From a virus, in the IMG/VR virus record IMGVR_UViG_3300045988_179268, positions 255,427 through 319,426 of that record: a stretch of DNA of 64,000 bases. One strand, given 5' to 3'. Below, one piece after another: positions 30,884-53,191 of the stretch. The position numbers and the translations under genes are program-made. The stretch's first letter is position 1. Each line of letters begins with the position of its first letter. Under the pieces are notes generated by a model. It made no database searches and was not told the DNA's origin. It saw only the letters and a program-made list of their open reading frames with translations.

Positions 30884-32119
30884 ATGACAACACAAACAAC
30901 AGGGACAGATTCTCCTCCGAAATACCATCTCAACAACGATAACGACTTCGGTAAATGTGACGCGAAAGAAGCAGAGAGGTGCCCTTACCGAGATAATCCG
31001 CATGGGTCACTGAACCACGTCTGCACCATTGCTGAACAGATGTCCAATGATAAGTTTGCCCCAAAGTATGCTCGCGAAAAAGCAAGACGTGAAGCATATG
31101 AAGCGAAACGTGCGCAAAAGATGGCATCGGAAAAGGCAGACGCGAAAAAAGTTGGTTCAGACACCACTCCAGCCACTCAACCAAATGCTGACGCTAAGCC
31201 CAAACCATCAGCCACCAAGCCGCCATCTCCTAAGCCTGGCATCCCTAAACCAGGTAGTATGCCGCACCCAACGCCACCCAACGCCAGTAAGCCACGCACA
31301 TTACCTAACGCTAAGTCGATAGCTGATACGCCTCTCCAGCCTGGCGACATAAAAGTTTCAGGTCTTAATGGGCGCACTTATATTCTTCCTTCACCGAAAG
31401 AGCGAACACCTCAGACGGAAGAAGAGTACTTAGTTGAACTGGAAAAGCAACGCATCTACCTAGATAGGGCAAGGTACATCACTGACCGTGATGCAAAGAT
31501 GCGTGACCCTAAGACTCCGGCGCGGGAGGTTCGTAGATTACAGCGTGAACTTGACCGGGAGAAGTCTAAGGCTGAGGAAAATGGTGTGCCGTGGGATGTT
31601 CCTCAGATTCTTTCATTGTGGGCTTTTAAACAGAGAACTGCCCGTAAAAAGGGTACTCGCGCGCATTGGCCCCGTCTCACGAAGGGTCAAAGGCAAATCA
31701 CTTATCAGCAGATGGATGAGGCAAGCATCGAAAGGTTCCATCAGCATGTGAAAGCCATCAACCCGGTCACACTTGATTTCAGTCAGCATGTGTATGAGAA
31801 ACTAGCCACGGGGAAACTGGCAGGGCTGACGGCGGAAGATGTATACTTCACGCTTCAATCGTATAACCCTGGCACATATTCCATCACAGAATACGACGAT
31901 AAACGTAAATCTGGGCGGTCTATCAGTATTCGTTCAAAGGAGTATAGTCGTGTTATCGCCCCTGAGAAGGGTGCACCGCCGGAAGAGTGCAACCTCATCC
32001 TAGTTATCAGTATCGACCCGCCACATCAGCAGGTAGTTACCGCGTATTGGAAGCCTGTGAATCAGTTCCCGAAAGAGTCCGGTATTCGATTTAAAGACCG
32101 TTGGCTCAAGGTCACATAA
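30884..32119 (+). CDS. Hypothetical protein with an N-terminal H..C..CPY..H knuckle and a Pro/Lys-rich linker
   Basis: KYHLNNDNDFGKCDAKEAERCPYRDNPHG, then KPKPSATKPPSPKPGIPKPGSMPHPTPP. Confidence 0.7.
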   Translation: MTTQTTGTDSPPKYHLNNDNDFGKCDAKEAERCPYRDNPHGSLNHVCTIAEQMSNDKFAPKYAREKARREAYEAKRAQKMASEKADAKKVGSDTTPATQPNADAKPKPSATKPPSPKPGIPKPGSMPHPTPPNASKPRTLPNAKSIADTPLQPGDIKVSGLNGRTYILPSPKERTPQTEEEYLVELEKQRIYLDRARYITDRDAKMRDPKTPAREVRRLQRELDREKSKAEENGVPWDVPQILSLWAFKQRTARKKGTRAHWPRLTKGQRQITYQQMDEASIERFHQHVKAINPVTLDFSQHVYEKLATGKLAGLTAEDVYFTLQSYNPGTYSITEYDDKRKSGRSISIRSKEYSRVIAPEKGAPPEECNLILVISIDPPHQQVVTAYWKPVNQFPKESGIRFKDRWLKVT

Positions 32120-32176
32120 CAATGATAGCTATATGTTATGCAACACGAACTTAATGTGAAGGAATAATTACGAAAA

Positions 32177-32587
32177 ATGGCACGCCCCCAATACCCAGTC
32201 ATCACGCTTACTTACGAGAATAGGCGAACAGGCACATATCGAGTTATCATCGCTCCCGGTGTAACTGTTCAATCGGAAACGGGCGACATTCCCTTAGAGG
32301 ATGTAGCGGCGAAAGCACGCATCACATTCAAAATGAGGGAAAGACTCACCAGTGACAGGGATAGCCTCTACAAAACGTTAGAAGACGTTTGTACAAACCC
32401 GAACATTCGCAGTAAGCCCGAGTTGTGGCGCATTATCGTACTTAGCGACGATGACCTAGAAACTGTATCCGACTTGTGTACAAGTGAGAACGTCGAAGTT
32501 GCGGAGATGACGCTTCGTGAAATTGGTCAGCGGGCTAAACAGGTGTATGATGGTTCCTTGGAACCTGTTAGAAATATTATCAAATAG
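32177..32587 (+). CDS. Hypothetical protein
   Basis: ORF-track frame. The SD sequence is weak. Confidence 0.6.
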   Translation: MARPQYPVITLTYENRRTGTYRVIIAPGVTVQSETGDIPLEDVAAKARITFKMRERLTSDRDSLYKTLEDVCTNPNIRSKPELWRIIVLSDDDLETVSDLCTSENVEVAEMTLREIGQRAKQVYDGSLEPVRNIIK

Positions 32588-32588
32588 T

Positions 32589-32617
32589 TTGCATACCTGA
32601 TTTTTATATGCTATAGT
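32589..32617 (+). promoter_or_regulatory. Promoter, TTGCAT-N17-TGcTATAGT, upstream of a four-tRNA cluster
   Basis: -35 at 32589-32594 and the extended -10 at 32609-32617. Confidence 0.55.
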
Positions 32618-32721
32618 AGGTTAAGGACGGGCGGCTACAGCTTGTCCAACAAAACACAGGGGTTCGCGAATCTTGTGTCCCATGTGGGAATCTTGACAGT
32701 AGTTGAGGTTCCCACATATAA

Positions 32722-32794
32722 TGGGGTATGGTGTAATGGCAGTCACGCCGGTCTTTGGAACCGTGTAGTGTAGGTTCGAATCCTGCTACCCCAG
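32722..32794 (+). tRNA. tRNA-Gln (anticodon TTG)
   Basis: Acceptor tggggta/tacccca, anticodon loop ctTTGga, T arm gtagg-ttcgaat-cctgc. Confidence 0.8.
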
Positions 32795-32816
32795 CTTAAA
32801 ACTAAATATTGTTTAT

Positions 32817-32888
32817 TGAGATGTGGTGTAATTGGCAACACGCCGGGCTCTGACCCCGGTACTTTAGGTTCGAATCCTACCATCTCAG
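32817..32888 (+). tRNA. tRNA-Gln (anticodon CTG)
   Basis: Acceptor tgagatg/catctca, anticodon stem ccggg/cccgg with loop ctCTGac, T loop ggttcgaatcc. Confidence 0.8.
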
Positions 32889-32921
32889 CGTCAGTCGAGA
32901 GTTCCACCTCTGGGCTGTTTT

Positions 32922-33010
32922 GGATAGGTGGCAGAGCGGCTTAATGCACTGGTCTTGAAAACCAGAGAGCCCTTAGCGGGGTTCCGCGGGTTCGAATCCC
33001 GCCCTATCCG
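32922..33010 (+). tRNA. tRNA-Ser (anticodon TGA), long variable arm
   Basis: Acceptor ggatagg/cctatcc, anticodon stem ctggt/accag with loop ctTGAaa, variable arm gagcccttagcggggttc. Confidence 0.85.
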
Positions 33011-33015
33011 CATTT

Positions 33016-33088
33016 TCCTCCTTAGCTCAATTGGTAGAGCGACGGTTTCATACGCCGTTGGTTATCGGTTCAAGTCCGGTAGGAGGGT
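33016..33088 (+). tRNA. tRNA-Met or Ile2 (anticodon CAT)
   Basis: Acceptor tcctcct/aggaggg (U1-G72), anticodon stem acggt/gccgt with loop ttCATac, T arm atcgg-ttcaagt-ccggt. Confidence 0.75.
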
Positions 33089-33124
33089 CGTCAAAAATAT
33101 ATTCACTGTCAGCAGTGGAAAATG

Positions 33125-33170
33125 AGGTGACCAGCAAGCTATAACTGTAGCACACTGGTCACCTTTTTTT
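33125..33170 (+). terminator. Rho-independent terminator of the tRNA cluster
   Basis: Stem aggtgaccag/ctggtcacct followed by T7. Confidence 0.8.
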
Positions 33171-33204
33171 ATATTCCTTTTCGCAACTAGCGGGTAAAAG
33201 AAAT

Positions 33205-33243
33205 TTACCCCTGATGGAGTGTTCTCTACTTCATCAGGGGTAA
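33205..33243 (-). terminator. Hairpin after the minus-strand gene pair
   Basis: 12-bp stem ttacccctgatg/catcaggggtaa just past the stop at 33252. Confidence 0.6.
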
Positions 33244-33251
33244 TCCAATGT

Positions 33252-33584
33252 TTATGCCTCAACCTCGCCAATAACGAAAGTTACCTCATCGACTTCCGTA
33301 TCCACCTCAATATCAAGAATAGGGGTGATTGAGGTGACGTTATGTTTAAACCCAGCGAGTGCTTCCGGCGCATATTCCTCATGGTTAATCACCTTATGAA
33401 GAGTACGTGCTATCCCGCCGGTTGGGGAAACAATGGTGCCGCTAACATGGGTCTTAGTGGGGCTATGCGGGACGTTCAAAGTTGAGATTTTAAGCTTGTA
33501 CCCGGACATATCTTTATCTGCAAGCTTAGCTAGTTCTGAGATGAAGAAGTTTGACCGGGCAGGGAAGGTGATAGTCGTAGTCAA
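33252..33584 (-). CDS. Hypothetical protein
   Basis: TTG start sits 8 nt after AAGAGG on the minus strand. Confidence 0.6.
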   Translation of the reverse strand: MTTTITFPARSNFFISELAKLADKDMSGYKLKISTLNVPHSPTKTHVSGTIVSPTGGIARTLHKVINHEEYAPEALAGFKHNVTSITPILDIEVDTEVDEVTFVIGEVEA

Positions 33585-33596
33585 AGTGTGTGCCTC

Positions 33597-34248: not shown

Positions 34249-36660
34249 ATGTCTCCTGTTTATGAGCCTCCACAGAGGTACGGTGAACGTATCGCGAACC
34301 TATGGGGTTCGAACGCGCTAAAGTCCCATGTCTTCGACGCATTAGCGCAGACTTCCGTCTCACAGTCATCTATCCTTAATGCACCTAAGAGTGACTTGAC
34401 GCTACTTGAAAAGCGATGGATTGACTTCTTCACATATATTGGTGTTTCGCCCGAGGTCATTGCCAAGTCGCTGAACAATGTGCGCGATGTTGAGGCGATT
34501 GAGGCTCGCCAAAGCTCAAAGGCTTCTAAGAACGCTGTACTTGAGATGCGTATTGAGCGTAAGAACAGCGTCCAGTCTCCGCCGCCTTACCCTTACAAAG
34601 ATGACGTTAGGGAAACGGATGACCCCACGCTTGCAACTAATCGTGAGCGTGCCGCCCTCTACGACATTGGCGTAGATACGGGCATGAAGTGGGATGAGTG
34701 GCGCACCGAAGATGTGATGTACCTTGAGTATGTCATGTCCCGTTACGGTGGCGAGGGGTTAAACTCAGACCTTTTCGTGTACTACACGCTGTTCACCCCT
34801 ATGAATGTCCGCACGCTACCCAGGCTACTGAATGAGCGTAAAGACAAAGTGGGTACGTACAGTTCTCCGGTACCTTGCCCCTATGTGTTCTCTTACAGCG
34901 ACTATGTATCTTCGGGTCTTAGCCGCCGATTCACCGCGTTCAACGGTGAGTACCTTTACAGCCCAACGCTTAGGGGTGAAAATGAAGAAGTCTTTGACGC
35001 TTTGAGGCGTACAGAAAATGTAGAGCATATTTGCGTTAATGTGGATAAGCTGTCTACCGTTTCTGGGCACACGGTCACCCATCAGAGTTTAGCGTTGTCC
35101 CTGTTGTGGAATGGTGCTTCTAAGAGCACTATTGAGAACACGCTTGCCTCTTCCTTTGAAATTACTGAACATAGCGCCTATTCAACCCTCATTGATGCAC
35201 TGAAAACAAGGAAAAATGGTGAGCCTACCGCGCCGAAGCACGCACTTCATTATGTGCCAACCTCAAAGGTGCCAGCACTCAGCTACTACCCGAACATTTA
35301 CTATAAGCCTGAGATGACATTCACAGGCTTTGACGATAAGGAATACACCCTTAACCCGTGGTCTACCGTGACCGCCAAGTTCATTGGTGTCCCCCTACAG
35401 GAGAGGCTGTACCTGGCATGGCTTGCAGAGAACTACCCTGAACGTGCTGTAGCCCGATATGTCGCCCTCTACACTCCAAGTAAGGACTTTAACGGATTCG
35501 CCAGAGGTGTAGCTATTGGCGACTACCTTGACAAGGCGAAGCGGGCGAAGGGTACTGTAGTCAAAGAAGTCCCTTGCCCGTTTGAAGTACCTATGGAAGC
35601 TGTCTACGACGCAGGTACAGAAAGCGTCCTGTACTACGAGCATCTTAACGTGAAGAACGGTGCTGTGGTAGACATTGGGTGGGATGCCTCTCAGGTATTC
35701 ATTTCCGAGGCTGATTTCAGTGCTTCTCTTGAACAGTCTGCTAAGCCTGAGAAGGCGGTTCAAGAGGAACTTAGCTTTGAGGGGGAGCCGGAACCTGCTG
35801 TTGCGGATGAACAGCCCGCCGTTGAGGAAGCTTCTGTTGAGGATACCTCTGACGAGTTCATGGACTCTATGGCGAAATTGGTTGGGAGTGGCAATACCAC
35901 TAAGGTAGGCGACACCGAGGGGCGCGCCACCGACACGGCTGAGGAAGCTCAGGTAAGCGCCACTAAGGAAAGTGAGGCATATCAGGCACCCTCCACTACC
36001 GAGAAGAAAACTGTCCCTGTAGCACATGCACTTCCTGAATGTGCGCCGCAGTATAAGCCGCTACCTGGTGACAGTAAGCTCGCTATTGATTTTGCGTTGC
36101 CAGGGGTTGATGAGGCAATTGACCACGGCGCATTGAACCGCGCCCAGCAGGAAGCATTGAACATTGCTCGACGTACACCATTCGCCCCTCTAGCGCCTGC
36201 ACCTAAGCATTCTGGGCACACGCTAGGAGATGTGGCTGTGAAGACTTCACAGGCTGTCTCAGGGGTTATGCGTCGCATTATTGCCGCCAATGAGGAAGCT
36301 GTCACTAATGCCCCCCTCAGCGTCATTGCGGCATTACTGAACATTCCGCCTCTGGCTGTGGTGACCATCCTTACCCGTGAACATGGGTGGGGTTCCTCTA
36401 TTGAAGGTCTAGCGGCATTGGTGAATGTTCACCCTGACACAATGTTCAGTGTTTTTGCTAAGCAGTTTGACTCTAACGCACCTTTCAGCTCTGTGCCAGT
36501 AATTTTCGGCATCAGTGTTGATGAGGCACTACGAACACTTATTGGTAACAATGCTGGATTGGATTTGAAGGACATCCCTCTGTCCCTTATTGCGGAAGCG
36601 TTGGGTAAAACGCAGGATGCCATCATTGCCGACAGTATCGGTCTGGGTTCACTACTGTAA
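34249..36660 (+). CDS. Large hypothetical protein (803 aa) with several HTH-like segments and an acidic central region
   Basis: Repeated motifs of the form LS.IA..L(G/N).....(I/V), for example LSVIAALLNIPPLAVVTIL and LSLIAEALGKTQDAIIADSIG. No SD sequence at ATG 34249. Confidence 0.7.
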   Translation: MSPVYEPPQRYGERIANLWGSNALKSHVFDALAQTSVSQSSILNAPKSDLTLLEKRWIDFFTYIGVSPEVIAKSLNNVRDVEAIEARQSSKASKNAVLEMRIERKNSVQSPPPYPYKDDVRETDDPTLATNRERAALYDIGVDTGMKWDEWRTEDVMYLEYVMSRYGGEGLNSDLFVYYTLFTPMNVRTLPRLLNERKDKVGTYSSPVPCPYVFSYSDYVSSGLSRRFTAFNGEYLYSPTLRGENEEVFDALRRTENVEHICVNVDKLSTVSGHTVTHQSLALSLLWNGASKSTIENTLASSFEITEHSAYSTLIDALKTRKNGEPTAPKHALHYVPTSKVPALSYYPNIYYKPEMTFTGFDDKEYTLNPWSTVTAKFIGVPLQERLYLAWLAENYPERAVARYVALYTPSKDFNGFARGVAIGDYLDKAKRAKGTVVKEVPCPFEVPMEAVYDAGTESVLYYEHLNVKNGAVVDIGWDASQVFISEADFSASLEQSAKPEKAVQEELSFEGEPEPAVADEQPAVEEASVEDTSDEFMDSMAKLVGSGNTTKVGDTEGRATDTAEEAQVSATKESEAYQAPSTTEKKTVPVAHALPECAPQYKPLPGDSKLAIDFALPGVDEAIDHGALNRAQQEALNIARRTPFAPLAPAPKHSGHTLGDVAVKTSQAVSGVMRRIIAANEEAVTNAPLSVIAALLNIPPLAVVTILTREHGWGSSIEGLAALVNVHPDTMFSVFAKQFDSNAPFSSVPVIFGISVDEALRTLIGNNAGLDLKDIPLSLIAEALGKTQDAIIADSIGLGSLL

Positions 36661-36679
36661 ACTCAGCCGCTATTAAAAA

Positions 36680-37717: not shown

Positions 37718-37741
37718 TATTGGGGCGGTAACACTGAAACT

Positions 37742-37754
37742 CTTTGATATATAT
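37742..37754 (+). promoter_or_regulatory. CTTTGATATATAT motif (second promoter-like class)
   Basis: About 155 nt upstream of ATG 37910. One of five related copies in the window. Confidence 0.35.
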
Positions 37755-37909
37755 TACGTGACAGTTCAAACACCATAAACTGAGCCCCGATTTGTGAAGC
37801 AGAACGTGTTGTATGAAGTTGCTATCACAAGGAACTGTAAGAACCTAAGAGCGTGGCGTATGCCGCCGGGGTTCAGCACCTAGTATATAAAGATGGAGAA
37901 AAATTAATT

Positions 37910-39580
37910 ATGGCTGGTCTACATTTTAGTCCTTTCCTTCCGCCTTTCCCTGGTGTGGGCGTTTGTAAAGCAATGAGTGCCGACACCTGCCCCTATGGTG
38001 GTGCAGATACTCACATTATCACCGAGTACCTGCCGCCTGAGATGCAGGAAATGCTTCTTGGTGACCCGCCTATCTACCCGCCAAAGAGTGCTATCAATAA
38101 GGCTCTTGAAGCTTCCATGAGTACCGCCGGTACCCGCATGTTCATGAAGTTCATTAATGATAGGGCTAAGCCTCAAATCATGAACAACTACATTGCTAAG
38201 TCTGTGTCTGGTAGCCGCCGCCGCGCGAAGACAGCGGAGGGTAAGATGATGATTCAGGCTATGCGCGGTAAGGCTGGCGCAAACCTGATGATGAACTCCT
38301 TCAAGAAGTTTAAGGGCAAGTATGGTGACGCTGAGGGTATGGCGAACTACGAGGAGTTCACCAAGTGGCGTACCGAGAACATTGAACAGGAAGATGCCCG
38401 TAAGCTTGCACTTGATGAGTTCCTGGCCCGTAAGGATGCGCCTAGTAACAGTGGTCCTCGTAACGCCGCCGAGAGGAAGCGTAAAGAGGAAGTCCGTGAC
38501 GCTAAGCAGGCGAAGTACGATAAGAAACTTCGTGAGTACCAGGCGCTTCTCGACAGAGGTGTACCCGCTGAGAAGCTTGAGGGTAAGCGTAATGAGCTGA
38601 GGAAACTCGCGCCGAAGAAGACCGGCAACGAGTACATGAAGGACAAGGTTCACAAAGCCTCCCTCGTGAAGGAAACTTCGGTTACTGTCACGAAGAAGGA
38701 CGGCTCCCAGGAAAACATCGACTTCCTTGAACTGTCTGAGAAGAAGTCCTTGGTGAAGGCGTACAACGATAGTGTGGAAGCCGCTAATGACCGCCTAGCA
38801 TACATCATGAGTATTTCTGAGAACCCCGCTATCAAGGATGGCACTGGTATCGGTAACGAAATCTCTCTTGTTCATGAGGGTAGGCGTGTCAATGTTAAGT
38901 TTAACTACAACAAGATTGATACTGACAAGCTGGATGCTTTGCCGAAGAAGGTTCGTGATAGCATCACGAAGGGCAGTAGCACCCGAATCAATATTGAGGG
39001 CTGGGATGCGGCTCTAGCTAACGGTGACATCACTCAGGAAGAGTACGACCTGGTGACGCAGGACGTTAGTGAGATTAACTACCTGTCGCCAAGGCTTGAC
39101 GCTCAGGCTCAGGAAGAGGTTGGTGTTAAGTTTACGCCTCCAGTTAAGAGCCGTTCCGTGAACAGGGTTAAGGACGTTCGTTCCACTCTGAATGATGTTT
39201 GTAGGGACTTTGCTGTAGCTGATAAGGCGTTTAAAGAGAAGTCTGGTGGTAAGACCGCTAAGGAACTTAATAAGGAAGTTCTTGCTGGCTCTAAAGCTAT
39301 TAAAGACCACATGGCTGATGAGTATGCGCCGGGCATGAGCCTTATCATGGGTACTAGTAGCTCTGATGTTGGCACGAACATCGTTCAGTCTTCTAGAAGG
39401 CAGTCTGCGGCTAAATCTGTTCAGACTAAGGTGTTTGGTCCGAGGCTTGATACGCTGATGCGTACCTACGGCACGAGTTCTGCTTCTTACGACTATGAGT
39501 TGATGAAGGAGAAGTTCTCACCCGAGGAATTGAAGGAATACACCTACACGTCGGCTGAGATTACCACTGAGGAAATTTAG
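37910..39580 (+). CDS. Highly charged hypothetical protein with an N-terminal H..C..CPY..H knuckle
   Basis: MAGLHFSPFLPPFPGVGVCKAMSADTCPYGGADTHI. Lys/Glu/Arg-rich body. Confidence 0.7.
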   Translation: MAGLHFSPFLPPFPGVGVCKAMSADTCPYGGADTHIITEYLPPEMQEMLLGDPPIYPPKSAINKALEASMSTAGTRMFMKFINDRAKPQIMNNYIAKSVSGSRRRAKTAEGKMMIQAMRGKAGANLMMNSFKKFKGKYGDAEGMANYEEFTKWRTENIEQEDARKLALDEFLARKDAPSNSGPRNAAERKRKEEVRDAKQAKYDKKLREYQALLDRGVPAEKLEGKRNELRKLAPKKTGNEYMKDKVHKASLVKETSVTVTKKDGSQENIDFLELSEKKSLVKAYNDSVEAANDRLAYIMSISENPAIKDGTGIGNEISLVHEGRRVNVKFNYNKIDTDKLDALPKKVRDSITKGSSTRINIEGWDAALANGDITQEEYDLVTQDVSEINYLSPRLDAQAQEEVGVKFTPPVKSRSVNRVKDVRSTLNDVCRDFAVADKAFKEKSGGKTAKELNKEVLAGSKAIKDHMADEYAPGMSLIMGTSSSDVGTNIVQSSRRQSAAKSVQTKVFGPRLDTLMRTYGTSSASYDYELMKEKFSPEELKEYTYTSAEITTEEI

Positions 39581-41158: not shown

Positions 41159-41172
41159 CTTTGGATATATAG
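41159..41172 (+). promoter_or_regulatory. CTTTGGATATATAG motif
   Basis: About 120 nt upstream of ATG 41291. Confidence 0.35.
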
Positions 41173-42764: not shown

Positions 42765-42776
42765 TTTGATATATAG
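42765..42776 (+). promoter_or_regulatory. TTTGATATATAG motif
   Basis: About 70 nt upstream of ATG 42845. Confidence 0.35.
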
Positions 42777-42844: not shown

Positions 42845-45319
42845 ATGGCTACTAAAATTCACGTTGGATTCAAGGACGGGAAGCTAACCAGCGGCAAATG
42901 CGAAGCCGATAAGGGTAAATGCCCATATGGTAACCACTTCCCATCACAGAGTGAAGCAGATAAGTACCAAGAGCATGTCGCTGAAATTCTTCACAGCCCT
43001 CAGTACCGTGACCTGGCGGCAGGGCATGAAGCTTATGCCGCTGAGGGTGGCGGAAAGATGACCACTCAAGACGCTTTAGGTATGGGCTTCCCTGAGGAAG
43101 TAGCTAAGCTGATTGGCGGTGAGCCGACCGACCCTAAGTATGCCCGCGAAAACGTTGGCGTAGAGACTGTTGAGGAGCCTGTAGCTGAACCTGCGCAGGC
43201 GGAAGAGGTTTCTGCCGCTACAAGTCAAGATAAAGAAGTATCTGCCGAGGAACCAACGCCGAAGCCGAAGACTAAGCCTCGCAAGAAGACCGTTAAGGAA
43301 GAGGAGCCCATTGAGGAAGTTGGGCATGATGCGCCACCTGAGAAGTTTGACCTTAATAGCGCGGAAGGTAAAGAGCAACTATACACTATCTTAAACTCAT
43401 ACAAGAAGTCTGCACCCGAAGACTTCTCCGTGATGCCTTCGTCCATGCATAAGTATGCTAATCTCAGCTTCCTCACCATGAAGAATGACCCTGAATATCA
43501 GAAGCTAAAGGATGAGTATGCTGGGTTTGCTAAAGGGTTGGCGGCACTACGCGCTAATATGGACGACCAGCTTCCCGATGAGGATAAAGCACGTATGCAA
43601 TACCTCGTGGATTCCATGAAGCCCCTGGATGATTCTATGGGGAGCATTCGGCGCGGCATTGCGGAAGAGATGGGGTGGGAACCATCGGAAGACGACGGCT
43701 TGAACACCTGGCGTTCTGTTGCGAATTACGGTGAAGAAGACAATGACGTGAATGACAGAATCGTTGAAGACCTTCTTGCCCGCCGTGTCCGTGGTGAATC
43801 AGAAGAAGACCGCCAAGAAGCATACGACACCATTAACGGCGACCTTCTCCAGCGTACACGATACAAAGCGACAGCGGATGCGCCGCCAGCCCACACATGG
43901 GAAAAGGTTATGGGTAAGCAAACCCCTTGGAATAATCATATTTCCACGGTTGAGTTGAATAAGCTTGCTCACCATCAGACTGTAAACGCTTATAGTGACA
44001 TGTTGGCTGCTGGTCGTGAAGCGAAGAAAGCCGCCAACGCGCGTAAAGCTGACTCTGTTGATGAACTGAAAGCTAAGTCTGCGAAGCTCAGCATCTCAGG
44101 CGATAAAGCTAAACCTATCTACGACTACACGCAATATGGAGATACTGACGCTGAACGAGAGTATTATCAGCGTGCCAGTGAGCGAACCAAGGCAAGGCTT
44201 AAGCCTGGTGCTTATGTGATGCTTGCCGGTTTGGATGCGGAAACATACCAGATTGCACCCGATGGTGGCTTAAAAACCACTGATGGTAAGCTGTGGGGCT
44301 ATGTGGACTTTAAGACTGGTGCAATGTATGACGTGGATGGTCAGCATCTAGGTAATAAAGGTGGTGCCCGTGTTTACGCTAACACAGATGAGCTGTTGCG
44401 TTATGCCGCGCTAGACAACGGTTCACACGATACACCAGGTAGCACGTCAGCAGACCCAGGGTACAAGAGCAGGTATGAGACTGACCCGAAGCACTCTAAG
44501 GAGTTTCAAAAGGTTTACGACCATCTTCGCCGCAATGAACAGGGTTGGGCTGAGGTAGCTAAGCGCAACCAAGAGATTGACTTGGCTGTACATGGCAAAG
44601 ACGGCTTCGACCTATACGATGAGGCTGTAGCTAAGTATGGAATGAAGGAGCTTGACCTCCGAAGGTTTGATGTGAACCCGAACGGCGAGAAGGTTCTTAA
44701 GAACCGTGTCAAGGAACATATCGCTAAAGAAATTAACGCCGGTAGGCTTGCTTACGATTTTAAGTCAGACTCCTTGGAAAAGGTTCAGCGTGATTCGATT
44801 GAGTCGTATGCGCCGAAGGAAGCGCTTGATGATTTCTTTGCAAGCGATACCCCTCCCGCTACTCGTGCGTCCATCATGAGTGCGGCTAGGCGTAAACGTG
44901 AACTCATCACGGCTCAGGCAGACCAGTTCGCTGGCGCTATTGAGAGCAAACCGACTGAGTATAGTGCGATTGGGCATAGGCGTAGAAGGTGGGCTGGCAG
45001 TTCAAAAATTCCATTGGGGAACGCTAAGACTGGCAACCTGATTTATTCACCAGCAACTCATGGGTACGAGAACAACCTTCATGAGACTTATGTGGTAGTA
45101 GACCAGGAAAAGAAGCTCATGGTTCCAGTTACCGAGGGCTTGACCCCTGAGAGTATGTTTAACCAGCAGAACAAGGGTTGGATGTCGTCTCCAGTGACTA
45201 CATCAGAGTACACTGTTCAGAACTTGTTGCGTCGCTACAAGTCGGGTGACCCAACTCTGGATGTACGTGAGATTCCGAATGATGATGACAGCTCCGCCGC
45301 TAATCTTCGAGTCTGGTAA
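42845..45319 (+). CDS. Large paralogue family protein 1 of 4 (824 aa), N-terminal knuckle
   Basis: MATKIHVGFKDGKLTSGKCEADKGKCPYGNHF. LIGGEPTDPKYARENVG. ADPGYKSRYETDPKHSKEF. SAARRKRELITAQADQFAGAIE. Ends ...NLRVW. Confidence 0.85.
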   Translation: MATKIHVGFKDGKLTSGKCEADKGKCPYGNHFPSQSEADKYQEHVAEILHSPQYRDLAAGHEAYAAEGGGKMTTQDALGMGFPEEVAKLIGGEPTDPKYARENVGVETVEEPVAEPAQAEEVSAATSQDKEVSAEEPTPKPKTKPRKKTVKEEEPIEEVGHDAPPEKFDLNSAEGKEQLYTILNSYKKSAPEDFSVMPSSMHKYANLSFLTMKNDPEYQKLKDEYAGFAKGLAALRANMDDQLPDEDKARMQYLVDSMKPLDDSMGSIRRGIAEEMGWEPSEDDGLNTWRSVANYGEEDNDVNDRIVEDLLARRVRGESEEDRQEAYDTINGDLLQRTRYKATADAPPAHTWEKVMGKQTPWNNHISTVELNKLAHHQTVNAYSDMLAAGREAKKAANARKADSVDELKAKSAKLSISGDKAKPIYDYTQYGDTDAEREYYQRASERTKARLKPGAYVMLAGLDAETYQIAPDGGLKTTDGKLWGYVDFKTGAMYDVDGQHLGNKGGARVYANTDELLRYAALDNGSHDTPGSTSADPGYKSRYETDPKHSKEFQKVYDHLRRNEQGWAEVAKRNQEIDLAVHGKDGFDLYDEAVAKYGMKELDLRRFDVNPNGEKVLKNRVKEHIAKEINAGRLAYDFKSDSLEKVQRDSIESYAPKEALDDFFASDTPPATRASIMSAARRKRELITAQADQFAGAIESKPTEYSAIGHRRRRWAGSSKIPLGNAKTGNLIYSPATHGYENNLHETYVVVDQEKKLMVPVTEGLTPESMFNQQNKGWMSSPVTTSEYTVQNLLRRYKSGDPTLDVREIPNDDDSSAANLRVW

Positions 45320-45331
45320 TATACCATAATT

Positions 45332-45344
45332 CTTTGATATAAAG
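45332..45344 (+). promoter_or_regulatory. CTTTGATATAAAG motif
   Basis: Directly after the stop of paralogue 1 and upstream of terminator 45369-45402. Confidence 0.3.
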
Positions 45345-45402: not shown

Positions 45403-45417
45403 TTTTGGTGCGCAACC

Positions 45418-45428
45418 TGATATATAGG
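45418..45428 (+). promoter_or_regulatory. TGATATATAGG motif
   Basis: About 75 nt upstream of ATG 45501. Confidence 0.35.
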
Positions 45429-45500: not shown

Positions 45501-48015
45501 ATGGCTACTAAAATTCACGTTGGTTTTAGAGATGGGAAGCTGACGGCGGGTAAGTGTGAGGCTGATAAGGGTAAATGCCCTTACGGTAACCACTTCGCGT
45601 CGCAGAGTGAAGCCGACAAATACCAAGAGCATGTTGCTGAGATTCTACACAGCCCTAAATATCGCGACTTAGCGGCTGGATTTGAGGCGATGGGCGCGGG
45701 TGGCAACGCCATGACTACCCAAGACGCTTTAGCCAATGGTTTCCCGCCGGAAATTGCTAAGCTTATTGGTGGTGAGCCTACTGACCCGAAATATGCGCGT
45801 GAAAACGTTGGCGTAGAGACTGTTGAGGAGCCTGTAGCTGAACCTGTGCAGGTGGATGTGGAGGATTCCCCACCTGTCGTCAGTGGCGAAAGCGCGAAAG
45901 TAGAAGAGGCAGAACAGCTATCTGAAAAGGAGCCGGAAACCGTCGAATCTCCCGTTTCTGAGTCAGAGGTGGCTACACCCCGACCAGCCAACGATGGCGC
46001 GGTTAGCCATGATGTGCCACCAGAACCAGGTAGTATTGACATCAACACCCCCGAAGGTGTTGAACGATTCATTGAGGTTCTTGACAGTTACAGGGTGTCA
46101 GATAGTGACAGCTTTAAGAAGTTCGCGCCATATTTAAAGCGAGCTGTTTACGCTACCGATGACCCAAATGGTAACTGGAGCAAGGTTGAAAAGGAGCTAG
46201 AAAGGTATGCTAGGGCTGTAAACCATGTGCGCACCGGGAGTCTTGAGAGGATGCAGGAGAAAGACAGGGAAAATAGTAGGCGACTTACCGATGTTGGCGT
46301 TGAGGTAACTATGGCGGATGCGGCGGCTAACAAATACTACGAGCGTCAGGGGTTAGAAGTTCCTGGCTACGGAGCATTCCGTGCAATTGCGAACTATGGC
46401 GAGTTCGGCAATGAAATTAACGATGTTATTGTGCAAGATACCCTCTTGAGGCGCACTCAGGACAAGAATACTGGTGACCGCATTGCCGCGTATAAAGCCA
46501 TTTCACCATCTATCGTATATGAAGACAATGTTTCAGGTGAAGCCGACTGGCATCGTGAGATAGGTATGACTGGAATCCCCTACAGCGCTCCTACTGAGAT
46601 GGGGTATGACCCAGACATTGAGATGAATAAGCTTAGGCGACATCTGTTTGTCAATAAGTATAGTGACATGCTTACCAAAGACCGTAATCTCAAAAAGCGT
46701 GCGAACTCTACTATGAACGGCTTAACTGTTCAGGAAATTGAGGAGAAATCCAAGTCTCCCTATAATAGCACTGATAGCGGTAAAGCGATTTACAGCGGAG
46801 ACTACGCAAGGTCACACGATAAAGACCTGGGTGGATGCGTATTATAGTCAGGCGGCAAAACGCACAGCAGAAAAATTGAAGCCTGGCTCTTACGTCATGC
46901 TAAACAATTACGACGCTGAGGTGTACCAGATTGGGGAGGATGGTGCGTTACTCACTCCAGAAGGCAACGTTTGGGGGCGTGTAGACTTTGAAAAGGGCAC
47001 CATTCATGACTCACAGGGAGTCAATATCTATGATACTCAGGGCGGTGCCCGACTCTATGCTGATGCCGACGAGTTGATGCGTTATGCCGCATTAGATGAC
47101 CAACCTAACGGTCTTGTCACCTCTGCTGACCCTGGCTACAGGTCTAAGTATGAGGATGACCCGAAGCTGAGCAAGAAGTTTGAGCGCGCCGTCAAATATC
47201 TTGAGTCGATGGAGGCTTTAGAGAACGAGGCGGCTATTAGGCAACAGGAGTTCGCTACAGCGTCCAGGTCATATAGCCCGAGTGAGCTGTACGACATTGC
47301 GACTGCAAAGTTTGGTATGCCTCACTTTGATAGGGAGTTGGCGAAGGATAAGTCGAAAGAAGCCATGATGAAGAAGGAAATCATGGTGCAGGATTATTTG
47401 CGTGAACAGTTCATGGAGCATGGCGCTAGGAACAATTTCAGGAACGGCACTATCGTAAAGTCGAACCGTCGAGGGTTGAGTGCTTTAGCACCTAAAAAGT
47501 CACTTGATGAGGTTCTTGGCAAGAATGTACCTGTGGCTGTGAAAGCTTCCATCATTAACGCGGCTAAGCGCAAACGCGCTAGGGAAACTGCTCAGGGCGA
47601 CGCATTTGCGGGCGCTTTTGAAAGGAAAATTACTGAGATAAACCCGACCAGTAAGAGGCGTAGAAGCTGGGGTGACAAGCCTCTACCGCCCGCTTATGCC
47701 CGAACCGGAGACTTACTGTACAACCCCGTTGGTGAGCCTGACGGTAAACACACAACATTTGTTGTGGTAGACCGCGAAAAGGGGTTAATGGTCGAGCTTA
47801 ACACTCGCACCCCACAGCACAGGACGAGGCGACACAACGCTAAGCAGATGGAAATTGACCCTAATTACGGGCTAGTCCCTGAGAAGCATCTAGCTTTAAC
47901 ATCTGAGTACGCCATCCAGGATGCTCTGAAACGTTACGAGATGGGCGACCCAAGCCTCAAAGTGAATTTCATGCCTCTAGAAGATGACAACGATATGCTC
48001 TTGAAGCTTTGGTAG
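45501..48015 (+). pseudogene. Large paralogue family member 2 of 4, interrupted by a single-nucleotide frame change near 46824
   Basis: The first frame reads ...AIYSGDYARSHDK and then DLGGCVL-stop at 46845-46847. The next frame continues TWVDAYYSQAAKRTAEKLKPGSYVMLN. Joined, this aligns residue-for-residue with PIYAGHSDAWDDKYLQDSYYKEASAETKEKLKPGSFMMLN of paralogue 3. Confidence 0.7.
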
Positions 48016-48050
48016 AACCAAGCTGGCTTCAACATCAATAGATGGCACAG

Positions 48051-48094
48051 GTGCCTGGCTTAGCGGTGTAGGAAACCGCGGCTAAGCCAGGCAC
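48051..48094 (+). terminator. Hairpin
   Basis: 14-bp stem gtgcctggcttagc/gctaagccaggcac, followed by a C-run instead of a T-run. Confidence 0.5.
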
Positions 48095-48104
48095 CCCCCC
48101 CCCC
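48094..48104. repeat. Homopolymeric C11 tract
   Basis: cccccccccc c read directly at 48094-48104, 43 nt upstream of ATG 48148. Confidence 0.9.
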
Positions 48105-48147
48105 TTAGTTAAGGGGTAGCATATTTTTATAAAAGGAGAAAAATAGT

Positions 48148-50583
48148 ATGGCTACTAAAGTTCACGTTGGGTTTAAGAATGGCAAGCTAACCAGTGGCAA
48201 GTGTGAGGCGGATGTTCGCGCTTGCCCTTATGGTAACCATTTTGCGTCGCAGAGTGAAGCAGACAAATATCGAGAAGATGTTGCCGCAATTCTTTACAGC
48301 CCTGAGTATCGCCACCTAGCGGAAAGCTATGAGGTCTTTGGTGCAGAGGGCGGCAAGATGACCACTGAGCAGGCTTTAGGTCAAGGTTTCCCGCCGGAAA
48401 TTGCGAAGCTTATCGGTGGTGAGCCGACTGACCCGAAGTATGCGCGTGAGAATGTGGGCAAAGACGTTGTGCCAGAGGTTGCGGCTGACGACTCGCCAGT
48501 TGATGCCCTTTCGTCAAGTGGCGCTGAGGTGAAGCAGGAAAGTGCCCCTGTAGACCACTCAAGGAAACCCAAAGGTATTGACCTTGAGACGGAAGAAGGT
48601 GTCGCAAGGTTTAAAGAGATTCTGAATAGCTACACGGTTTCTTCCCGTGAGGAATTTGAACAGCCACCGAGTAGGCTACGCAGGATTATCCGCCTTATCG
48701 ACCCGAGGCGCAAAGCTAAGCTGGTAAAGGAATATAAGACTTTCGGGTCTGTGCTTACCGCATTGCGCACTGGTCAAATTATGAGCCTCAAGAAGGAGGA
48801 GAGTAATCAGCTTACAGATATTCTGATGTATCAGTCTCGATACCGCTTATCAGCAATGAAGAAATATCGAGAACTAGGGAAAAGTAACCCTGACGACACT
48901 TTATTCAGAAGCATTGCGAGTTATGGTGAGGCGGGTAATGATGCGAATGATTTAATCACTTTAACCACGCTGGCTAGGCGTGCGGCAGGCGTGAATGAAG
49001 ATGACGACTTTGCGGGGTATGAGGCTGTTGATGCTGACCTTATTCATAATGACGGTGTTGCTGGTGAAGAGGAGTGGAACCGTGTAGTCGGCAGGGATGG
49101 CATTCCTTATGGCGCGCCAACTGAGATGGGGTATGACCCTGACATTGAGCTGAATAAGATTAGGCATATGAAGCTTGCTAATAGGTATAGTGACATGCTT
49201 GCGGATAGCCGCGCCAAAAAGAAGCTTGCGAACGCCACGATGGATGGTCTGACGGTGGGTGAAATCTTAGCGAAGGTGGATGCCCCTAACCAGAGGCACA
49301 GTTCGTCACAGCCTATCTATGCGGGTCATAGCGACGCTTGGGATGACAAGTATCTACAGGACAGCTATTACAAGGAAGCGTCAGCTGAAACTAAGGAGAA
49401 GTTGAAGCCAGGCTCGTTTATGATGCTTAACGGGCGAGACGCGGAAGTTTATCGGATTCGTGAAGATGGTGCTCTCGTTACGCCGGAAGGCAAGACGTGG
49501 GGTCACGTCGATTTTAAGACTGGTCGTGTCCATAACGCACATGGTGAAAACATTGTTGTGAGTCACAAAGGTGCCCGCGTGTACGCTAATGAGGGTGAGT
49601 TGATGCGTTACGCCGCGCTTGATGACGTTGAAGAGATGCCCGCTGGCGGTATCGTTGGGGCAACCAGTTCCTCTGACCCTGGATATAGGTCTAAGTATGA
49701 GGATGACCCAAAGTTAAGTAAGAAGTTTGAACGCGCCGTCAGGCACCTTAAGCGTGAGGAGAAGGCGCTCACCTTTAGGGCTAAGATGCAAGAAGAGTAT
49801 GGTCGAGCTGTTGCTCAGCATGACGCGGCAGACCTGTACACTATCGCTACCAGCAAGCTTGGGATGCCTCCATTCAGTAAGGAAGTTGCCGAAGACAACT
49901 CCCCCAACGGTATCTTGTACAGGGAAATTGAGACGAAGAGGTATCTTGAGAGCCAGTTCCGCGCCGGTAAAGCAAGGTATGATTTCGGAAAGAAAGCTAT
50001 TGTAAAGAGTAACCGTAAGCCCATTGAAGACCTTATGCCTAAGAAGTCTCTGAGTGATGTTCTTGGTGATGATTTGCCTGTGGCTACGAAGGTTTCTATT
50101 ATGAACGCGGCTAGACGTAATCGCAACAGAGTCACTACCCAGGGCGACCAGTTCGCTGGCGCTTTTGAAGGTAAGATTGGGGCGCATAACCCGTCAGCGC
50201 ATAGGCGTAAAAACTGGTCTACTGAGAGGGTCGCGCCTGAACAAGCTGAAACGGGTAGCCTGTTATACAACCCTGACGCTAAGTACGATGACAAGTATGA
50301 AGTGTTTGTGGTGGTAGACCGCGAAAAGGGTCTGATGGCTCCCATTAAAGAAGCTACTTGGCAACATAGGACTCAAGCCCAGGAGGAGTCAGCTAAGGAG
50401 CGTAAGGCAAGAATGTATAGGGAAATTGATAAGGCGAAGGAATTGTCCCGTAAGGACATGGCGCTTGCGTCTGAATATTCTATTCAGGATGCTTTGAACC
50501 GCCACAAGATGAAAGACCCAAGCCTTAAGGTGGAGGTTATGCCTCTACAGTTGAAGAACCAGCGAGGTCTGGCTCTCTGGTAA
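48148..50583 (+). CDS. Large paralogue family protein 3 of 4 (811 aa)
   Basis: MATKVHVGFKNGKLTSGKCEADVRACPYGNHF. LIGGEPTDPKYARENVG. SDPGYRSKYEDDPKLSKKFERAV. Ends ...GLALW. Confidence 0.85.
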   Translation: MATKVHVGFKNGKLTSGKCEADVRACPYGNHFASQSEADKYREDVAAILYSPEYRHLAESYEVFGAEGGKMTTEQALGQGFPPEIAKLIGGEPTDPKYARENVGKDVVPEVAADDSPVDALSSSGAEVKQESAPVDHSRKPKGIDLETEEGVARFKEILNSYTVSSREEFEQPPSRLRRIIRLIDPRRKAKLVKEYKTFGSVLTALRTGQIMSLKKEESNQLTDILMYQSRYRLSAMKKYRELGKSNPDDTLFRSIASYGEAGNDANDLITLTTLARRAAGVNEDDDFAGYEAVDADLIHNDGVAGEEEWNRVVGRDGIPYGAPTEMGYDPDIELNKIRHMKLANRYSDMLADSRAKKKLANATMDGLTVGEILAKVDAPNQRHSSSQPIYAGHSDAWDDKYLQDSYYKEASAETKEKLKPGSFMMLNGRDAEVYRIREDGALVTPEGKTWGHVDFKTGRVHNAHGENIVVSHKGARVYANEGELMRYAALDDVEEMPAGGIVGATSSSDPGYRSKYEDDPKLSKKFERAVRHLKREEKALTFRAKMQEEYGRAVAQHDAADLYTIATSKLGMPPFSKEVAEDNSPNGILYREIETKRYLESQFRAGKARYDFGKKAIVKSNRKPIEDLMPKKSLSDVLGDDLPVATKVSIMNAARRNRNRVTTQGDQFAGAFEGKIGAHNPSAHRRKNWSTERVAPEQAETGSLLYNPDAKYDDKYEVFVVVDREKGLMAPIKEATWQHRTQAQEESAKERKARMYREIDKAKELSRKDMALASEYSIQDALNRHKMKDPSLKVEVMPLQLKNQRGLALW

Positions 50584-50615
50584 CGCCCCATTTGCAGATA
50601 ATTACATTGTGTTTT

Positions 50616-50663
50616 GGTGCCCAGCTTAACACCAACCTATCTAAGCTAGTTAAGCTGGGCACC
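50616..50663 (+). terminator. Hairpin terminator
   Basis: 15-bp stem ggtgcccagcttaac/gttaagctgggcacc. Confidence 0.7.
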
Positions 50664-50716
50664 TTGCCCTGTCAGGGGTTTACATATTTTTATTTCAAAG
50701 AAAAGAGAAGAATACT

Positions 50717-53191
50717 ATGACTACGAAAATGCACGTTGGATTCAGGGACGGTCAGCTAGTTAGCGGCAAGTGCGAAGCTGACAAAGGGAAATGTCCTTAT
50801 GGTAATCATTTCGCGTCGCAGAGTGAGTCAGATGCGTATAGGGAGCATGTCGCTGAAATTCTTTATAGCCCTGAATGTGCAGGTTTGGCGGCTGGTCTTG
50901 AAGCAATGGGCACCGCAAGTAACGGCATGACCACTGAGCAGGCTTTGGCGAACGGCTTCCCAGAGGAGATTGCGAAGCTGATTGGTGGTGAGCCTACCGA
51001 CCCGAAGTATGCCCGTGAAAACGTTGGTAAAGAACTGGAAGATGACTCACTTGAAGAGCTTCGTGAGGCGCTGAGTGGCAACCTGGGCGACGGGACAGAT
51101 GACGATGATGATTATGAGCCTCCAGCCTCTATGAGCGAAGCTATTGATGAGTTCATCGCAAAGCATGAAGTTTCTTCCCTGCGAGAAGCTTTAGGTGGCG
51201 AAACTCACGCCCTGGTTCATAGGTCTGTACCGGAAGGTATTGACCTTGAAACAGAAGAGGGTGCCGCTAAGTTCATGGAAGTGCTCAGTAGCTACAAGAT
51301 GTCAGCCAGAAGCGACTTTGAAGAGCTTCCCCCTTCGCTAGATAGGCACGGCTACACCTACTCCTATGGGGATAGAAGCAGTGATTACTACAAGTCCCTA
51401 AAGAACGAATACCAGAACTTTGGCGTAGCTTTAACCGCTTTGCGCACAGGGCAGACTGACCAGTTGAGCGTAGATGAGCTTGACATTGCTTCGGAGCATG
51501 AGGCTGAGTTCAACATCCTAAACGCGGCGGCAGATGCGGCATACGAGGGTGTTGATGGTGAGCGTGATACACGTGGCTGGCGTTCTGTCACAGACTACGG
51601 CGAAGAGGGTAACCAGGTTAATGACTCAATTATGCGTAGCATGATAATCCAGTCCGCGAATGGCGCTAATCGCCACTACCGCACTGAGGCATACAACCAC
51701 CTTAATGCGGACGTTATCTACAACGATGGTATCGGCGGGAATGACACATGGGAATATTACATGGGTGATTTGTCGCAGGATGAACTGTCTAAGTTGGGTT
51801 TAAGCCCTGACATTGAGATGAATAAATTGCGCCATCACCTGTATGCAGAGAGGTACGGTGAGGAGCTTGAAAATGCGGATAAGGCAAAGCATGAAGCGGC
51901 GCGTAAAAGTGCTGGGACAAGCCTGGAAGACCTTAAAGCGAACATTAAGTCCAACACCTCCAGCCTTGACCAGCTAAAAAATTCCCCCATTAGCAAGAAC
52001 TTCTATCTGCATAATTCTTCACCAGCTGTGAAGGCTTACCACAAGGAAGCTGGCGCGAAGTTGAAGGAGAAGATTAAGCCCGGCTCTTTCGTTATGCTGA
52101 ACAGGCAGGATGCGCTTGTATACAGGATTGAGGAAGACGGCTCCCTCCGCACTCCAGACGGGGCGCTATGGGGGCACGTGAACCTTAAAACGGGTGCGAT
52201 GCATGACATTGACGGCACAAACATGCTTCATTCTGGTGGTGCTCGTGTCTACAGCAATGAGGATGAGCTGTATAAATATGCGGCGCTTGACGACGGGTTC
52301 CACCACCAGTCAGGGTGGTTCTCTGCTGACCCTGGTATCGTAAGCACCTATGAGGGTAGTGGCACCTACGGGAAACTGTTCGATAACGTAACTGATTACC
52401 TTAAGGAACGTGAGGACGCGCTAACGGAGCAGTCTCGCCGTAGCAGGGAGCTTGCAGATGGCGTGGACTCTATGGACGCAGGGAAGCTTTACGACGTTGC
52501 TCGAAAGAAGTTCGGGATGCCTGCCATCAGCAAGTCCAGCAATGCACTCAAAGCAGGTAACGAAGGCGAGCTCAAGCGTGAGGTGAGGAAGTACCTCAAG
52601 GGGCAGATTGACTCTGGCAAAGTGGAGTTTGATGCTAACACGAAGGAGTTCAAAGCTTCTAATCGTGAACCAGTGAAGCAGTATAACGAGGCTGAGGATA
52701 TGAAGCGTATCCTTGGTGAGAGTAATGACATCCCAGTGGCGACTCGTGTATCTATCATGAACAGCGCCCGCCGCAAGCGCGACATGATTACGGCTCAGGC
52801 TGACCAGTTCGCAGGTGCGTTTGAGCCGAGGCTTACGGAACATAACCCTGTGGCATCTAGGCGCGTGAACTGGAATCACGAATCGGTAAAAGTCAAGGAC
52901 GCTGAGAAGGGTAATCTTATCATTAGCAACACTATGGATAAGGATGGTACACGCGACACTTACGTTGTTGTGGATGCAGAGAAGGGGCTTATGGTTCAGA
53001 TTGACACTAACCTTACACCTACAGCTAGGTTGAGTGACCCTGATGGCAGTAGGGCAAGCGCTTTCCAGGCTACTACTTCCGAGTATGCTGTTCAGAATAT
53101 TTTGCGCCGCTACGAATTGGAAGACCAGTCTCTTAACGTTCAGCCTATCTCTGATAAAAATAGGTACGGTGATAGACTTCAAGTCTGGTAG
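50717..53191 (+). CDS. Large paralogue family protein 4 of 4 (824 aa)
   Basis: MTTKMHVGFRDGQLVSGKCEADKGKCPYGNHF. LIGGEPTDPKYARENVG. NSARRKRDMITAQADQFAGAFE. Ends ...RLQVW. Confidence 0.85.
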   Translation: MTTKMHVGFRDGQLVSGKCEADKGKCPYGNHFASQSESDAYREHVAEILYSPECAGLAAGLEAMGTASNGMTTEQALANGFPEEIAKLIGGEPTDPKYARENVGKELEDDSLEELREALSGNLGDGTDDDDDYEPPASMSEAIDEFIAKHEVSSLREALGGETHALVHRSVPEGIDLETEEGAAKFMEVLSSYKMSARSDFEELPPSLDRHGYTYSYGDRSSDYYKSLKNEYQNFGVALTALRTGQTDQLSVDELDIASEHEAEFNILNAAADAAYEGVDGERDTRGWRSVTDYGEEGNQVNDSIMRSMIIQSANGANRHYRTEAYNHLNADVIYNDGIGGNDTWEYYMGDLSQDELSKLGLSPDIEMNKLRHHLYAERYGEELENADKAKHEAARKSAGTSLEDLKANIKSNTSSLDQLKNSPISKNFYLHNSSPAVKAYHKEAGAKLKEKIKPGSFVMLNRQDALVYRIEEDGSLRTPDGALWGHVNLKTGAMHDIDGTNMLHSGGARVYSNEDELYKYAALDDGFHHQSGWFSADPGIVSTYEGSGTYGKLFDNVTDYLKEREDALTEQSRRSRELADGVDSMDAGKLYDVARKKFGMPAISKSSNALKAGNEGELKREVRKYLKGQIDSGKVEFDANTKEFKASNREPVKQYNEAEDMKRILGESNDIPVATRVSIMNSARRKRDMITAQADQFAGAFEPRLTEHNPVASRRVNWNHESVKVKDAEKGNLIISNTMDKDGTRDTYVVVDAEKGLMVQIDTNLTPTARLSDPDGSRASAFQATTSEYAVQNILRRYELEDQSLNVQPISDKNRYGDRLQVW

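Follow-up and report, generated by a model that had tools for sequence, protein, structure and literature searches.

A previously uncatalogued N-terminal H/C/C/H knuckle on unrelated proteins of giant uncultivated elements, a possible address tag

Why should otherwise unrelated proteins, encoded close together in one uncultivated viral record, begin with the same small arrangement of histidine and cysteine residues? The question is raised by a stretch of 64,000 nucleotides (nt; positions 255,427 to 319,426 of the IMG/VR record IMGVR_UViG_3300045988_179268), referred to below as the window, in which an initial annotation had noticed seven genes sharing an N-terminal His/Cys/Cys/His motif, here called the knuckle or tag. 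Genes are named by their start position in the window. A six-frame scan of the whole window with the pattern C-x(4,8)-C-P-[YFW] gave 13 matches; seven of these lay in long open reading frames (ORFs), each at the N-terminus and on the + strand, and the remaining six fell in non-coding frames full of stops. For the chance expectation, each of the 56 non-overlapping ORF products of the window was shuffled 2000 times. The shuffled proteins contained on average 0.042 matches to C..CP[YFW] (maximum 2) and 0.003 matches to the full H..C..CP..H arrangement, versus seven observed for either pattern. The motif shared by seven genes was thus borne out, and matches within ORFs occurred only at N-termini and far above the frequency expected at random positions. 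When the proteins were stripped of the tag and compared by blastp (E<=1e-5), their bodies fell into four separate clusters, i.e. the products of 30884, 37910 and 41291 and a set of four paralogues, which confirmed the claim that these bodies are mutually unrelated. The knuckle accordingly heads four families in the window, those of 30884, 37910, 41306 (the likely start of the gene first placed at 41291, see below) and the paralogues of 824 amino acids (aa).

The initial annotation had treated the motif as local to these seven genes, but the domain to which it belongs is widely distributed among giant uncultivated elements. When 1.84 billion representative proteins were searched with a profile of the first 50 residues, 28 matched at E<=1e-3, and all of these begin at residue 1-9 except for one false positive in a repeat protein; unrelated small proteins, e.g. 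MSQKYHVKPDGTVGVCKAERGRCPYQSAPHFNSEQEAQNY, were included among the matches. Pattern-seeded scans found the tag on 13 IMG/VR contigs, two contigs of metagenome-assembled genomes and 60 metagenome contigs. A total of 165 genuine occurrences was obtained over 85 loci (some referred to below by L numbers) with a guanine-plus-cytosine (GC) content of 27-57%, and the tag heads at least 37 unrelated body clusters. In about 153 of the 165 occurrences the first His follows the nearest ATG by 1-6 residues, and most of the others have alternative start codons. An alignment of 36 family representatives showed that the first His and both Cys are invariant, while the Ala of C-x-A, the Pro and the second His are conserved to at least 90%. 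Most families share the spacings H-x9-C (23 of 36) and C-x6-C (31 of 36); the residue before the first His is Y or F in 30, the one after the first Cys is K or R in 25, and Pro follows the second Cys in 34, the next residue being Y, F or L. The consensus reads M-x(1-4)-[YF]-H-[IVL]-x9-C-[KR]-A-x2-G-x-C-P-[YFL]-x(2-11)-H-[FY]-x-[ST]-x-E-[EK]-A and continues into a helix; an example of a modal family member is MTKFHISKHGMPAPCKAEKGNCPYGGEESHFNSLEEAQ. The versions found in the window are comparatively divergent, with H-x9 to x14-C and C-x5 to x7-C. The net charge is close to zero (+0.4) in the core and negative (-2.1) in the helix behind it, so that the domain is acidic overall.

No tag match was obtained in Pfam with full proteins or N-termini alone, even at E<=10, nor in NCBIfam; the 36 N-termini had no match in PHROGs, and PDB sequence profiles gave nothing significant. 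One weak match to DUF7552 (18 bits, below the cut-off) came from a single protein, did not recur and was discarded. Text searches of the literature found no description of the domain, and the text of one paper on polyvalent proteins (PMC5512222) describes no zinc, Zn-ribbon, ZnR, cysteine, treble clef or knuckle domain of such kind. The motif is therefore almost certainly the core of a real conserved domain of about 45-50 residues that had previously been uncatalogued. It would be worth adding to Pfam as a new family, even if it should turn out to be just a structural cap or a nucleic-acid finger.

Loss of the Cys and His residues in orthologues had been named beforehand as the outcome that would speak against the motif; H, C, C, P and H were found to be kept in all four families of the window. 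The 824-aa protein has forty homologues, all metagenomic, and this 820-aa family retains THVGF..G.L.SG.C.A....CPYGNH down to 32% overall identity. Orthologues of 37910 were found in L001, L002, L004, L008 and L009 and those of 41306 in L001-L004, L008 and L009; both families (556 and 473 aa) retain H, C, C, P, Y and H in the diverged syntenic loci L003 and L004 (51-52% GC) and L008 and L009 (53% GC). The orthologues of 30884 (L086/L087), at 64% identity, retain KYHVNKQDEYGKCSAKDPADCPFCDEPHG. Among the four paralogues, identity is 74-82% over residues 1-34 and 72-76% over residues 35-105, and drops to 19-23% in the linker and 36-39% in the body. Within their first 50 codons, 14-23 codons differ synonymously and 3-13 non-synonymously. 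Such abundant synonymous changes exclude recent gene conversion or a conserved nucleic-acid element at the 5′ end; selection acts on the protein sequence of the tag and not on the DNA.

The same counts bear on the idea that the shared N-terminus is a by-product at the DNA level, i.e. that a 5′ cassette comprising promoter, ribosome-binding site and first codons was copied between genes or is kept for translation initiation. The near-identical N-termini of the four paralogues and the DNA element found upstream of several tagged genes would agree with such a cassette. The synonymous differences at 14-23 of 50 codons, with the amino acids kept, largely refute it; moreover, the same residues are invariant across loci of 27-57% GC with unrelated upstream regions, and the three singleton families have the ligand pattern alone, not DNA, in common. 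A cassette origin is hardly credible on this evidence.

The upstream element itself was reported by the initial annotation as a motif, CTTTGATATATAG, preceding 37910, 41291, 42845 and 45501. Its presence at these four genes was confirmed, but the sites are not exact matches and differ from CTTTGATATATAG by one or two mismatches. The core TTGATATATAK occurs in five copies in the window, all on the + strand and about 70-170 nt upstream of tagged genes. One copy (37744-37754, TTGATATATAT) lies 156 nt upstream of 37910, one (41162-41172, TGGATATATAG) upstream of the 41306 gene and one (42766-42776, TTGATATATAG) 69 nt upstream of 42845, while two copies (45334-45344, TTGATATAAAG; 45417-45427, CTGATATATAG) precede 45501; the scan of the window revealed none upstream of 30884, 48148 or 50717. 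The element is kept upstream of the orthologues in L001-L004, L008 and L009, and it precedes three of the four tagged families of the window both here and in diverged relatives. Its sequence recalls an extended -10 box and suggests a promoter that is element-specific. A sigma-70 promoter scan gave no enrichment, with a single site (37728-37755) overlapping the element at 37744-37754.

AlphaFold2 modelling of the 824-aa paralogue with 21 homologues gave a mean predicted local distance difference test (pLDDT) score of 79.9. The tag is predicted to comprise strands 5-10, 13-18 and 30-32 and a helix at 35-49 (pLDDT 76-88), and more helices up to about residue 90, a disordered acidic linker (residues 107-157) and a large, mostly helical body are predicted to follow. 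The same elements were obtained when the isolated domain was modelled alone (pLDDT 76). H6 is placed on the first strand of a hairpin, C19 just past the second, C26-P-Y in a loop and H31 on strand 30-32. The register of the hairpin puts residue 6 opposite residues 16-18, so that the four ligands plausibly meet at its open end. One structural metal ion, presumably zinc, is most likely bound by these four residues, and metal binding by the domain as such is probable. Foldseek searches with the isolated domain gave nothing significant against the PDB (best E=4.5), nor did those with the 824-aa model against the PDB (best E=1.2) or BFVD (best E=0.32).

The initial annotation had proposed a small zinc knuckle as one of two readings. 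Ligand invariance, tight spacing and the compact predicted fold agree with it, but the domain fits no named knuckle or finger family. Retroviral-type CCHC knuckles (zf-CCHC) have the spacing C-x2-C-x4-H-x4-C; here it is H-x9..14-C-x5..7-C-x..-H, and no Pfam match was obtained at E<=10. Zinc ribbons and rubredoxin-like proteins carry two CxxC (or CPxCG) knuckles on two hairpins; the tag has no CxxC pair, and Foldseek found nothing in the PDB below E=4.5. Both assignments were rejected. A different use of the same residues would be a heme-regulatory or redox-sensing motif, in which the Cys-Pro-hydrophobic unit and a His control the stability or activity of the tagged protein. The Pro after the second Cys in 34 of 36 families, followed by Y, F or L, recalls the Cys-Pro heme-regulatory motifs, and the His residues could serve as second axial ligand. 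Four invariant, tightly spaced ligands and a compact predicted fold nevertheless suit a structural metal site better, Cys-Pro is also frequent in ordinary zinc knuckles, and no heme-related genes were seen nearby, so that this explanation appears improbable.

More weight has to be given to the main rival explanation, according to which the knuckle is a small nucleic-acid-binding finger, loosely CCCH-like, that tethers enzymes and large proteins to single-stranded RNA, tRNA or DNA and not to a protein partner. The tag C-[KR]-x..G-x-C-P-Y-G-x-x-H-F resembles the C-x8-C-x5-C-x3-H pattern of CCCH (C3H1) fingers, and in both the ligands are flanked by aromatic residues, which in the tag are conserved ([YF]-H, C-P-[YF], H-[FY]); the K or R after the first Cys in 25 of 36 families would also suit nucleic-acid binding. 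With a profile weighted towards the window, the top PDB match was the tristetraprolin finger GRCPYGSRCHF, but the match was not significant (E=0.61) and was lost with the 36-family profile. The tag differs from CCCH fingers in having only two conserved Cys, and one of its ligands would come from the N-terminal beta-strand; together with the lack of a match to any Pfam finger model at E<=10, this led us to reject membership of the CCCH family. In addition, the charge of the core (about +0.4) and of the helix (-2.1) is unlike that of typical basic fingers, and a generic binding module is not expected to stand at residues 2-7 in all 37 families.

The bodies behind the tag speak to both sides of this question. 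Most are orphans that show no link to nucleic acids. Among those annotated by Pfam are an ADP-ribosyltransferase (ADPrib_exo_Tox, PF03496, 47 bits), a CCA-adding or poly(A) polymerase-type nucleotidyltransferase (PolyA_pol, PF01743, 72 bits), a YqaJ exonuclease (55 bits), a zeta-toxin/AAA_33 kinase (Zeta_toxin, 57 bits) and a HEAT-repeat protein; the nucleotidyltransferase, the exonuclease, the kinase as a possible polynucleotide kinase and the ADP-ribosyltransferase are the bodies that would favour a finger. Taken together, a nucleic-acid finger is a serious but rather unlikely explanation. The tagged genes for the ADP-ribosyltransferase, the CCA-adding-type nucleotidyltransferase, YqaJ and the zeta-like kinase lie at L022 5995-6912, L024 4207-5080, L071 from 4007 and L077 from 3828. 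A further ADP-ribosyltransferase-like C-terminus of the R-S-E type (VYRG..SYSFD..GEAELMV), missed by Pfam, was recognized by eye in L032.

The elements that carry the tag are large. Contigs related to the window measure 307-366 kb and are rich in orphan genes, two of them being IMG/VR viral contigs; other carriers are contigs of 130-335 kb, plus single contigs of 437 and 727 kb. The GC content is 49% in the window and 49-53% in its relatives. Among cultured phages and plasmids, megablast found no match for 30000-54000 and tblastn none for the 824-aa protein or a tag sequence; a tag match in Escherichia phage fEgEco12 (E=9), internal to an RCC1-like gene, was considered spurious. The 820-aa paralogue family had no relative among 185,579 GTDB species genomes, and in GTDB the tag itself was seen on no more than the two metagenome-assembled contigs counted above. 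The window encodes a sortase (59646-60554) and, at 55513-58359, a surface protein with LPXTG and an Adhesin_P1_N domain, and therefore the host is expected to be Gram-positive.

These features recall Inocle, giant extrachromosomal elements of oral Streptococcus, which are circular replicons of about 245-395 kb with a GC content of 24-32% (PMC12340149). The likeness concerns the carrier, not the motif: the relatives resemble Inocle in size (307-366 kb) and in having insertion-sequence genes, tRNAs, sortase and LPXTG proteins; the window has TnpB/OrfB_IS605, Sortase and Adhesin_P1_N, with only 10 Pfam families matched across its 56 ORFs; and low-GC contigs bearing the motif have DNA polymerase III alpha and sortase nearby. 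The GC content of the window and its relatives (49% and 49-53% versus 24-32%) is unlike that of Inocle, and relatives are listed as viral in IMG/VR. The window is thus ruled out as Inocle proper by its GC content, and an Inocle-like element is a possible identity. The carrier may belong to an undescribed higher-GC lineage of giant oral elements or be a huge phage; more broadly, the carriers may be huge phages, plasmid-like replicons or both.

What, then, might the knuckle do? It is a portable module set before many unrelated proteins of giant (about 130-730 kb) phage- or plasmid-like elements, where it could serve as a common docking handle that binds one partner encoded by the element. Docking would bring varied, fast-evolving cargo proteins to one place, and the leading candidate for the partner would be an apparatus by which proteins are loaded for joint transfer with the DNA to the next cell. 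The strict position, the flexible linker, the conservation of the tag far above that of the body, the unstable tandem arrays, the effector-like bodies and the common promoter-like element point to such a docking or address handle. Its function is presumably common to all carriers and independent of the body. From the sequence features, a one-metal knuckle acting as a docking handle, with a protein-docking or address function, is the preferred if tentative proposal, somewhat short of even odds; delivery or packaging in particular, the leading guess, is less likely still. The furthest-reaching reading, in which huge phages and/or Inocle-like replicons would have a protein-delivery route of their own with the knuckle as its address label, and every tagged protein would be loaded and enter the next host together with the DNA, is given a probability of roughly 0.27. 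A common address tag was the second reading of the initial annotation, and it fits the strict placement at residues 2-7, the unrelated and partly effector-like bodies, the tandem arrays and the conservation of tag over body.

Two known systems offer parallels to such an address label. The capsid-targeting sequence of phage T4 is an N-terminal tag that directs the internal proteins and Alt into the prohead, and the prohead protease cleaves it from them; it is unstructured, about 10-20 residues long and without Cys or His ligands. Like it, the knuckle is short, occupies the very N-terminus of otherwise unrelated proteins of a single mobile element and has an ADP-ribosyltransferase among its cargo. 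In contrast, the knuckle is predicted to fold, spans about 45 residues, carries invariant H/C/C/H and does not resemble the T4 tag in sequence. The MuF toxins of temperate phages and the polyvalent proteins of phages and conjugative elements combine a constant N-terminal module with variable bodies and are thought to travel with the DNA (PMC5576092, PMC5512222). They share with the tagged proteins a constant head, variable and often enzymatic or toxin-like bodies (ADP-ribosyltransferase, kinase, nuclease) and their location on mobile elements. They differ in that the knuckle is about ten times smaller and that the tagged proteins contain no MuF or other known trafficking domain; membership of the MuF polymorphic toxins was rejected, as Pfam scans of the tagged proteins found no Phage_Mu_F domain.

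Several points weigh against an address label. Three of the five annotated bodies (CCA-adding enzyme, YqaJ exonuclease, zeta/AAA_33 kinase) act or may act on nucleic acids, and a nucleic-acid finger would suit them just as well. Helix capping accounts for the [ST]-x-E conserved behind the second His, which does not count as evidence of a protease site; no prohead protease gene was seen in the window. Nor were capsid, portal or terminase genes seen there or in about 56 kb of flanking sequence from six of the other loci. Some of the carriers look plasmid- or Inocle-like, and SecA, SecY, DNA polymerase III alpha, NAD ligase, sortase and a TrwB-type coupling protein are encoded in the flanks of low-GC carriers. 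Finally, the census was seeded with a few peptide patterns and is hence biased and incomplete.

The genes of giant phages and extrachromosomal elements of human oral and other microbiomes are mostly of unknown function, and the domain provides a first handle on them. Dozens of unrelated proteins are united by it in a single functional class, for which it predicts one common partner, and it offers a small fusion tag. If the knuckle is an address label, the full set of early effectors of these elements could be listed by a simple profile search, and this set may be switched by phase-variable C-tracts; if it is a loading or delivery signal, mobile elements of Gram-positive bacteria would have a protein-trafficking signal of a new kind.

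The first tagged gene of the window (30884-32119, + strand) encodes a 411-aa protein with the knuckle at nt 30926-31003 (H15/C25/C33-P-Y/H40). In no other family is the first His preceded by such a leader, which here has about 14 residues, and the C-terminal part of its product (aa 267-394) matches phrog_1905, of unknown function. The second (37910-39580, + strand) encodes a 556-aa protein with the knuckle at nt 37922-38014 (H5/C19/C27-P-Y/H35) and an orphan body. The third, for which the initial annotation gave 41291, probably starts at 41306 (MAFMHF...) and not at 41291 or 41243, because this start yields the 473-aa product that gene callers give in relatives; the gene (41306-42727, + strand) has the knuckle at nt 41318-41431 (H5/C20/C26-P-Y/H42) and likewise an orphan body. 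An APOBEC3A-like fold was considered for this body and dismissed, as the PDB match (E=0.098) and similar ones were not significant.

The four paralogues follow in tandem on the + strand. Paralogue 1 (42845-45319, 824 aa; knuckle nt 42860-42937, H6/C19/C26-P-Y/H31) consists of the knuckle, a conserved helical subdomain up to about aa 105, the acidic linker predicted to be disordered (aa 107-157) and the large body. Paralogue 2 (45501-48015; knuckle nt 45516-45593, H6/C19/C26/H31) is split by a frameshift at about 46800-46834 into a front half (45501-46847) and a back half (46834-48015), so that 45501, listed by the initial annotation as one of the seven genes, is only the front half of a paralogue. 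No homopolymer is found at the frameshift site, and in L001 the corresponding copy is broken at another place. Paralogue 3 (48148-50583, 811 aa; knuckle nt 48163-48240) and paralogue 4 (50717-53191, 824 aa; knuckle nt 50732-50809) both show H6/C19/C26/H31. In L003, a truncated paralogue copy of 224 aa stands beside a TnpB gene. The array thus gains, loses and degrades copies. Clustering of tagged genes is also seen elsewhere, with four genes within 3 kb in L067, three each in L023 and L065 and divergent pairs in L010-L013. The changes in copy number, truncations and frameshifts seen across the relatives are in keeping with conflict or cargo genes that evolve fast.

Homopolymeric C tracts are associated with the paralogues. 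A C11 tract (48094-48104) is located about 45 nt upstream of the start of 48148, another C tract (L004 9939-9949) upstream of the L004 paralogue, and a further one (L003 10338-10346) adjoins or lies inside a paralogue. A tract within the linker-coding region is C9 in L008 (15583-15591), where the gene of 846 aa is intact, and C8 in L009 (13004-13011), where the open frame of the orthologue is only 158 aa. These tracts reflect either phase variation by slipped-strand mispairing or homopolymer assembly errors.

An untagged 803-aa protein (34249-36660) is encoded in the same conserved array and contains V-P-C-P-[YF] at aa 209 and 442, each time after a basic stretch; this suggests an internal duplication. 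V-P-C-P-[YF] is not the N-terminal knuckle. The window has seven transfer RNA (tRNA) genes (Met x2, Gln x2, Ser, Pro and Thr; at 5863-5937, 32722-33089 and 54647-54913), four of which cluster between the 30884 gene and the remainder of the tagged array. At 8684-10285 it encodes an IS605-family TnpB (OrfB_IS605 with a Cas12f1-like TNB), followed at 10632-14064 by a MoxR-type AAA_5 ATPase and a VWA/DUF2201 protein, the latter carrying a long insert that is acidic and Gly/Ser-rich; HU is also encoded. A second large orphan family of the window is formed by seven tandem + strand paralogues of 305-568 aa at 14253-23576, which have beta-helix or bactofilin-like repeats (one weak Pfam match to Bactofilin) and share a C-terminal segment with C-R-C-x-L-[WY]-x-P-L.

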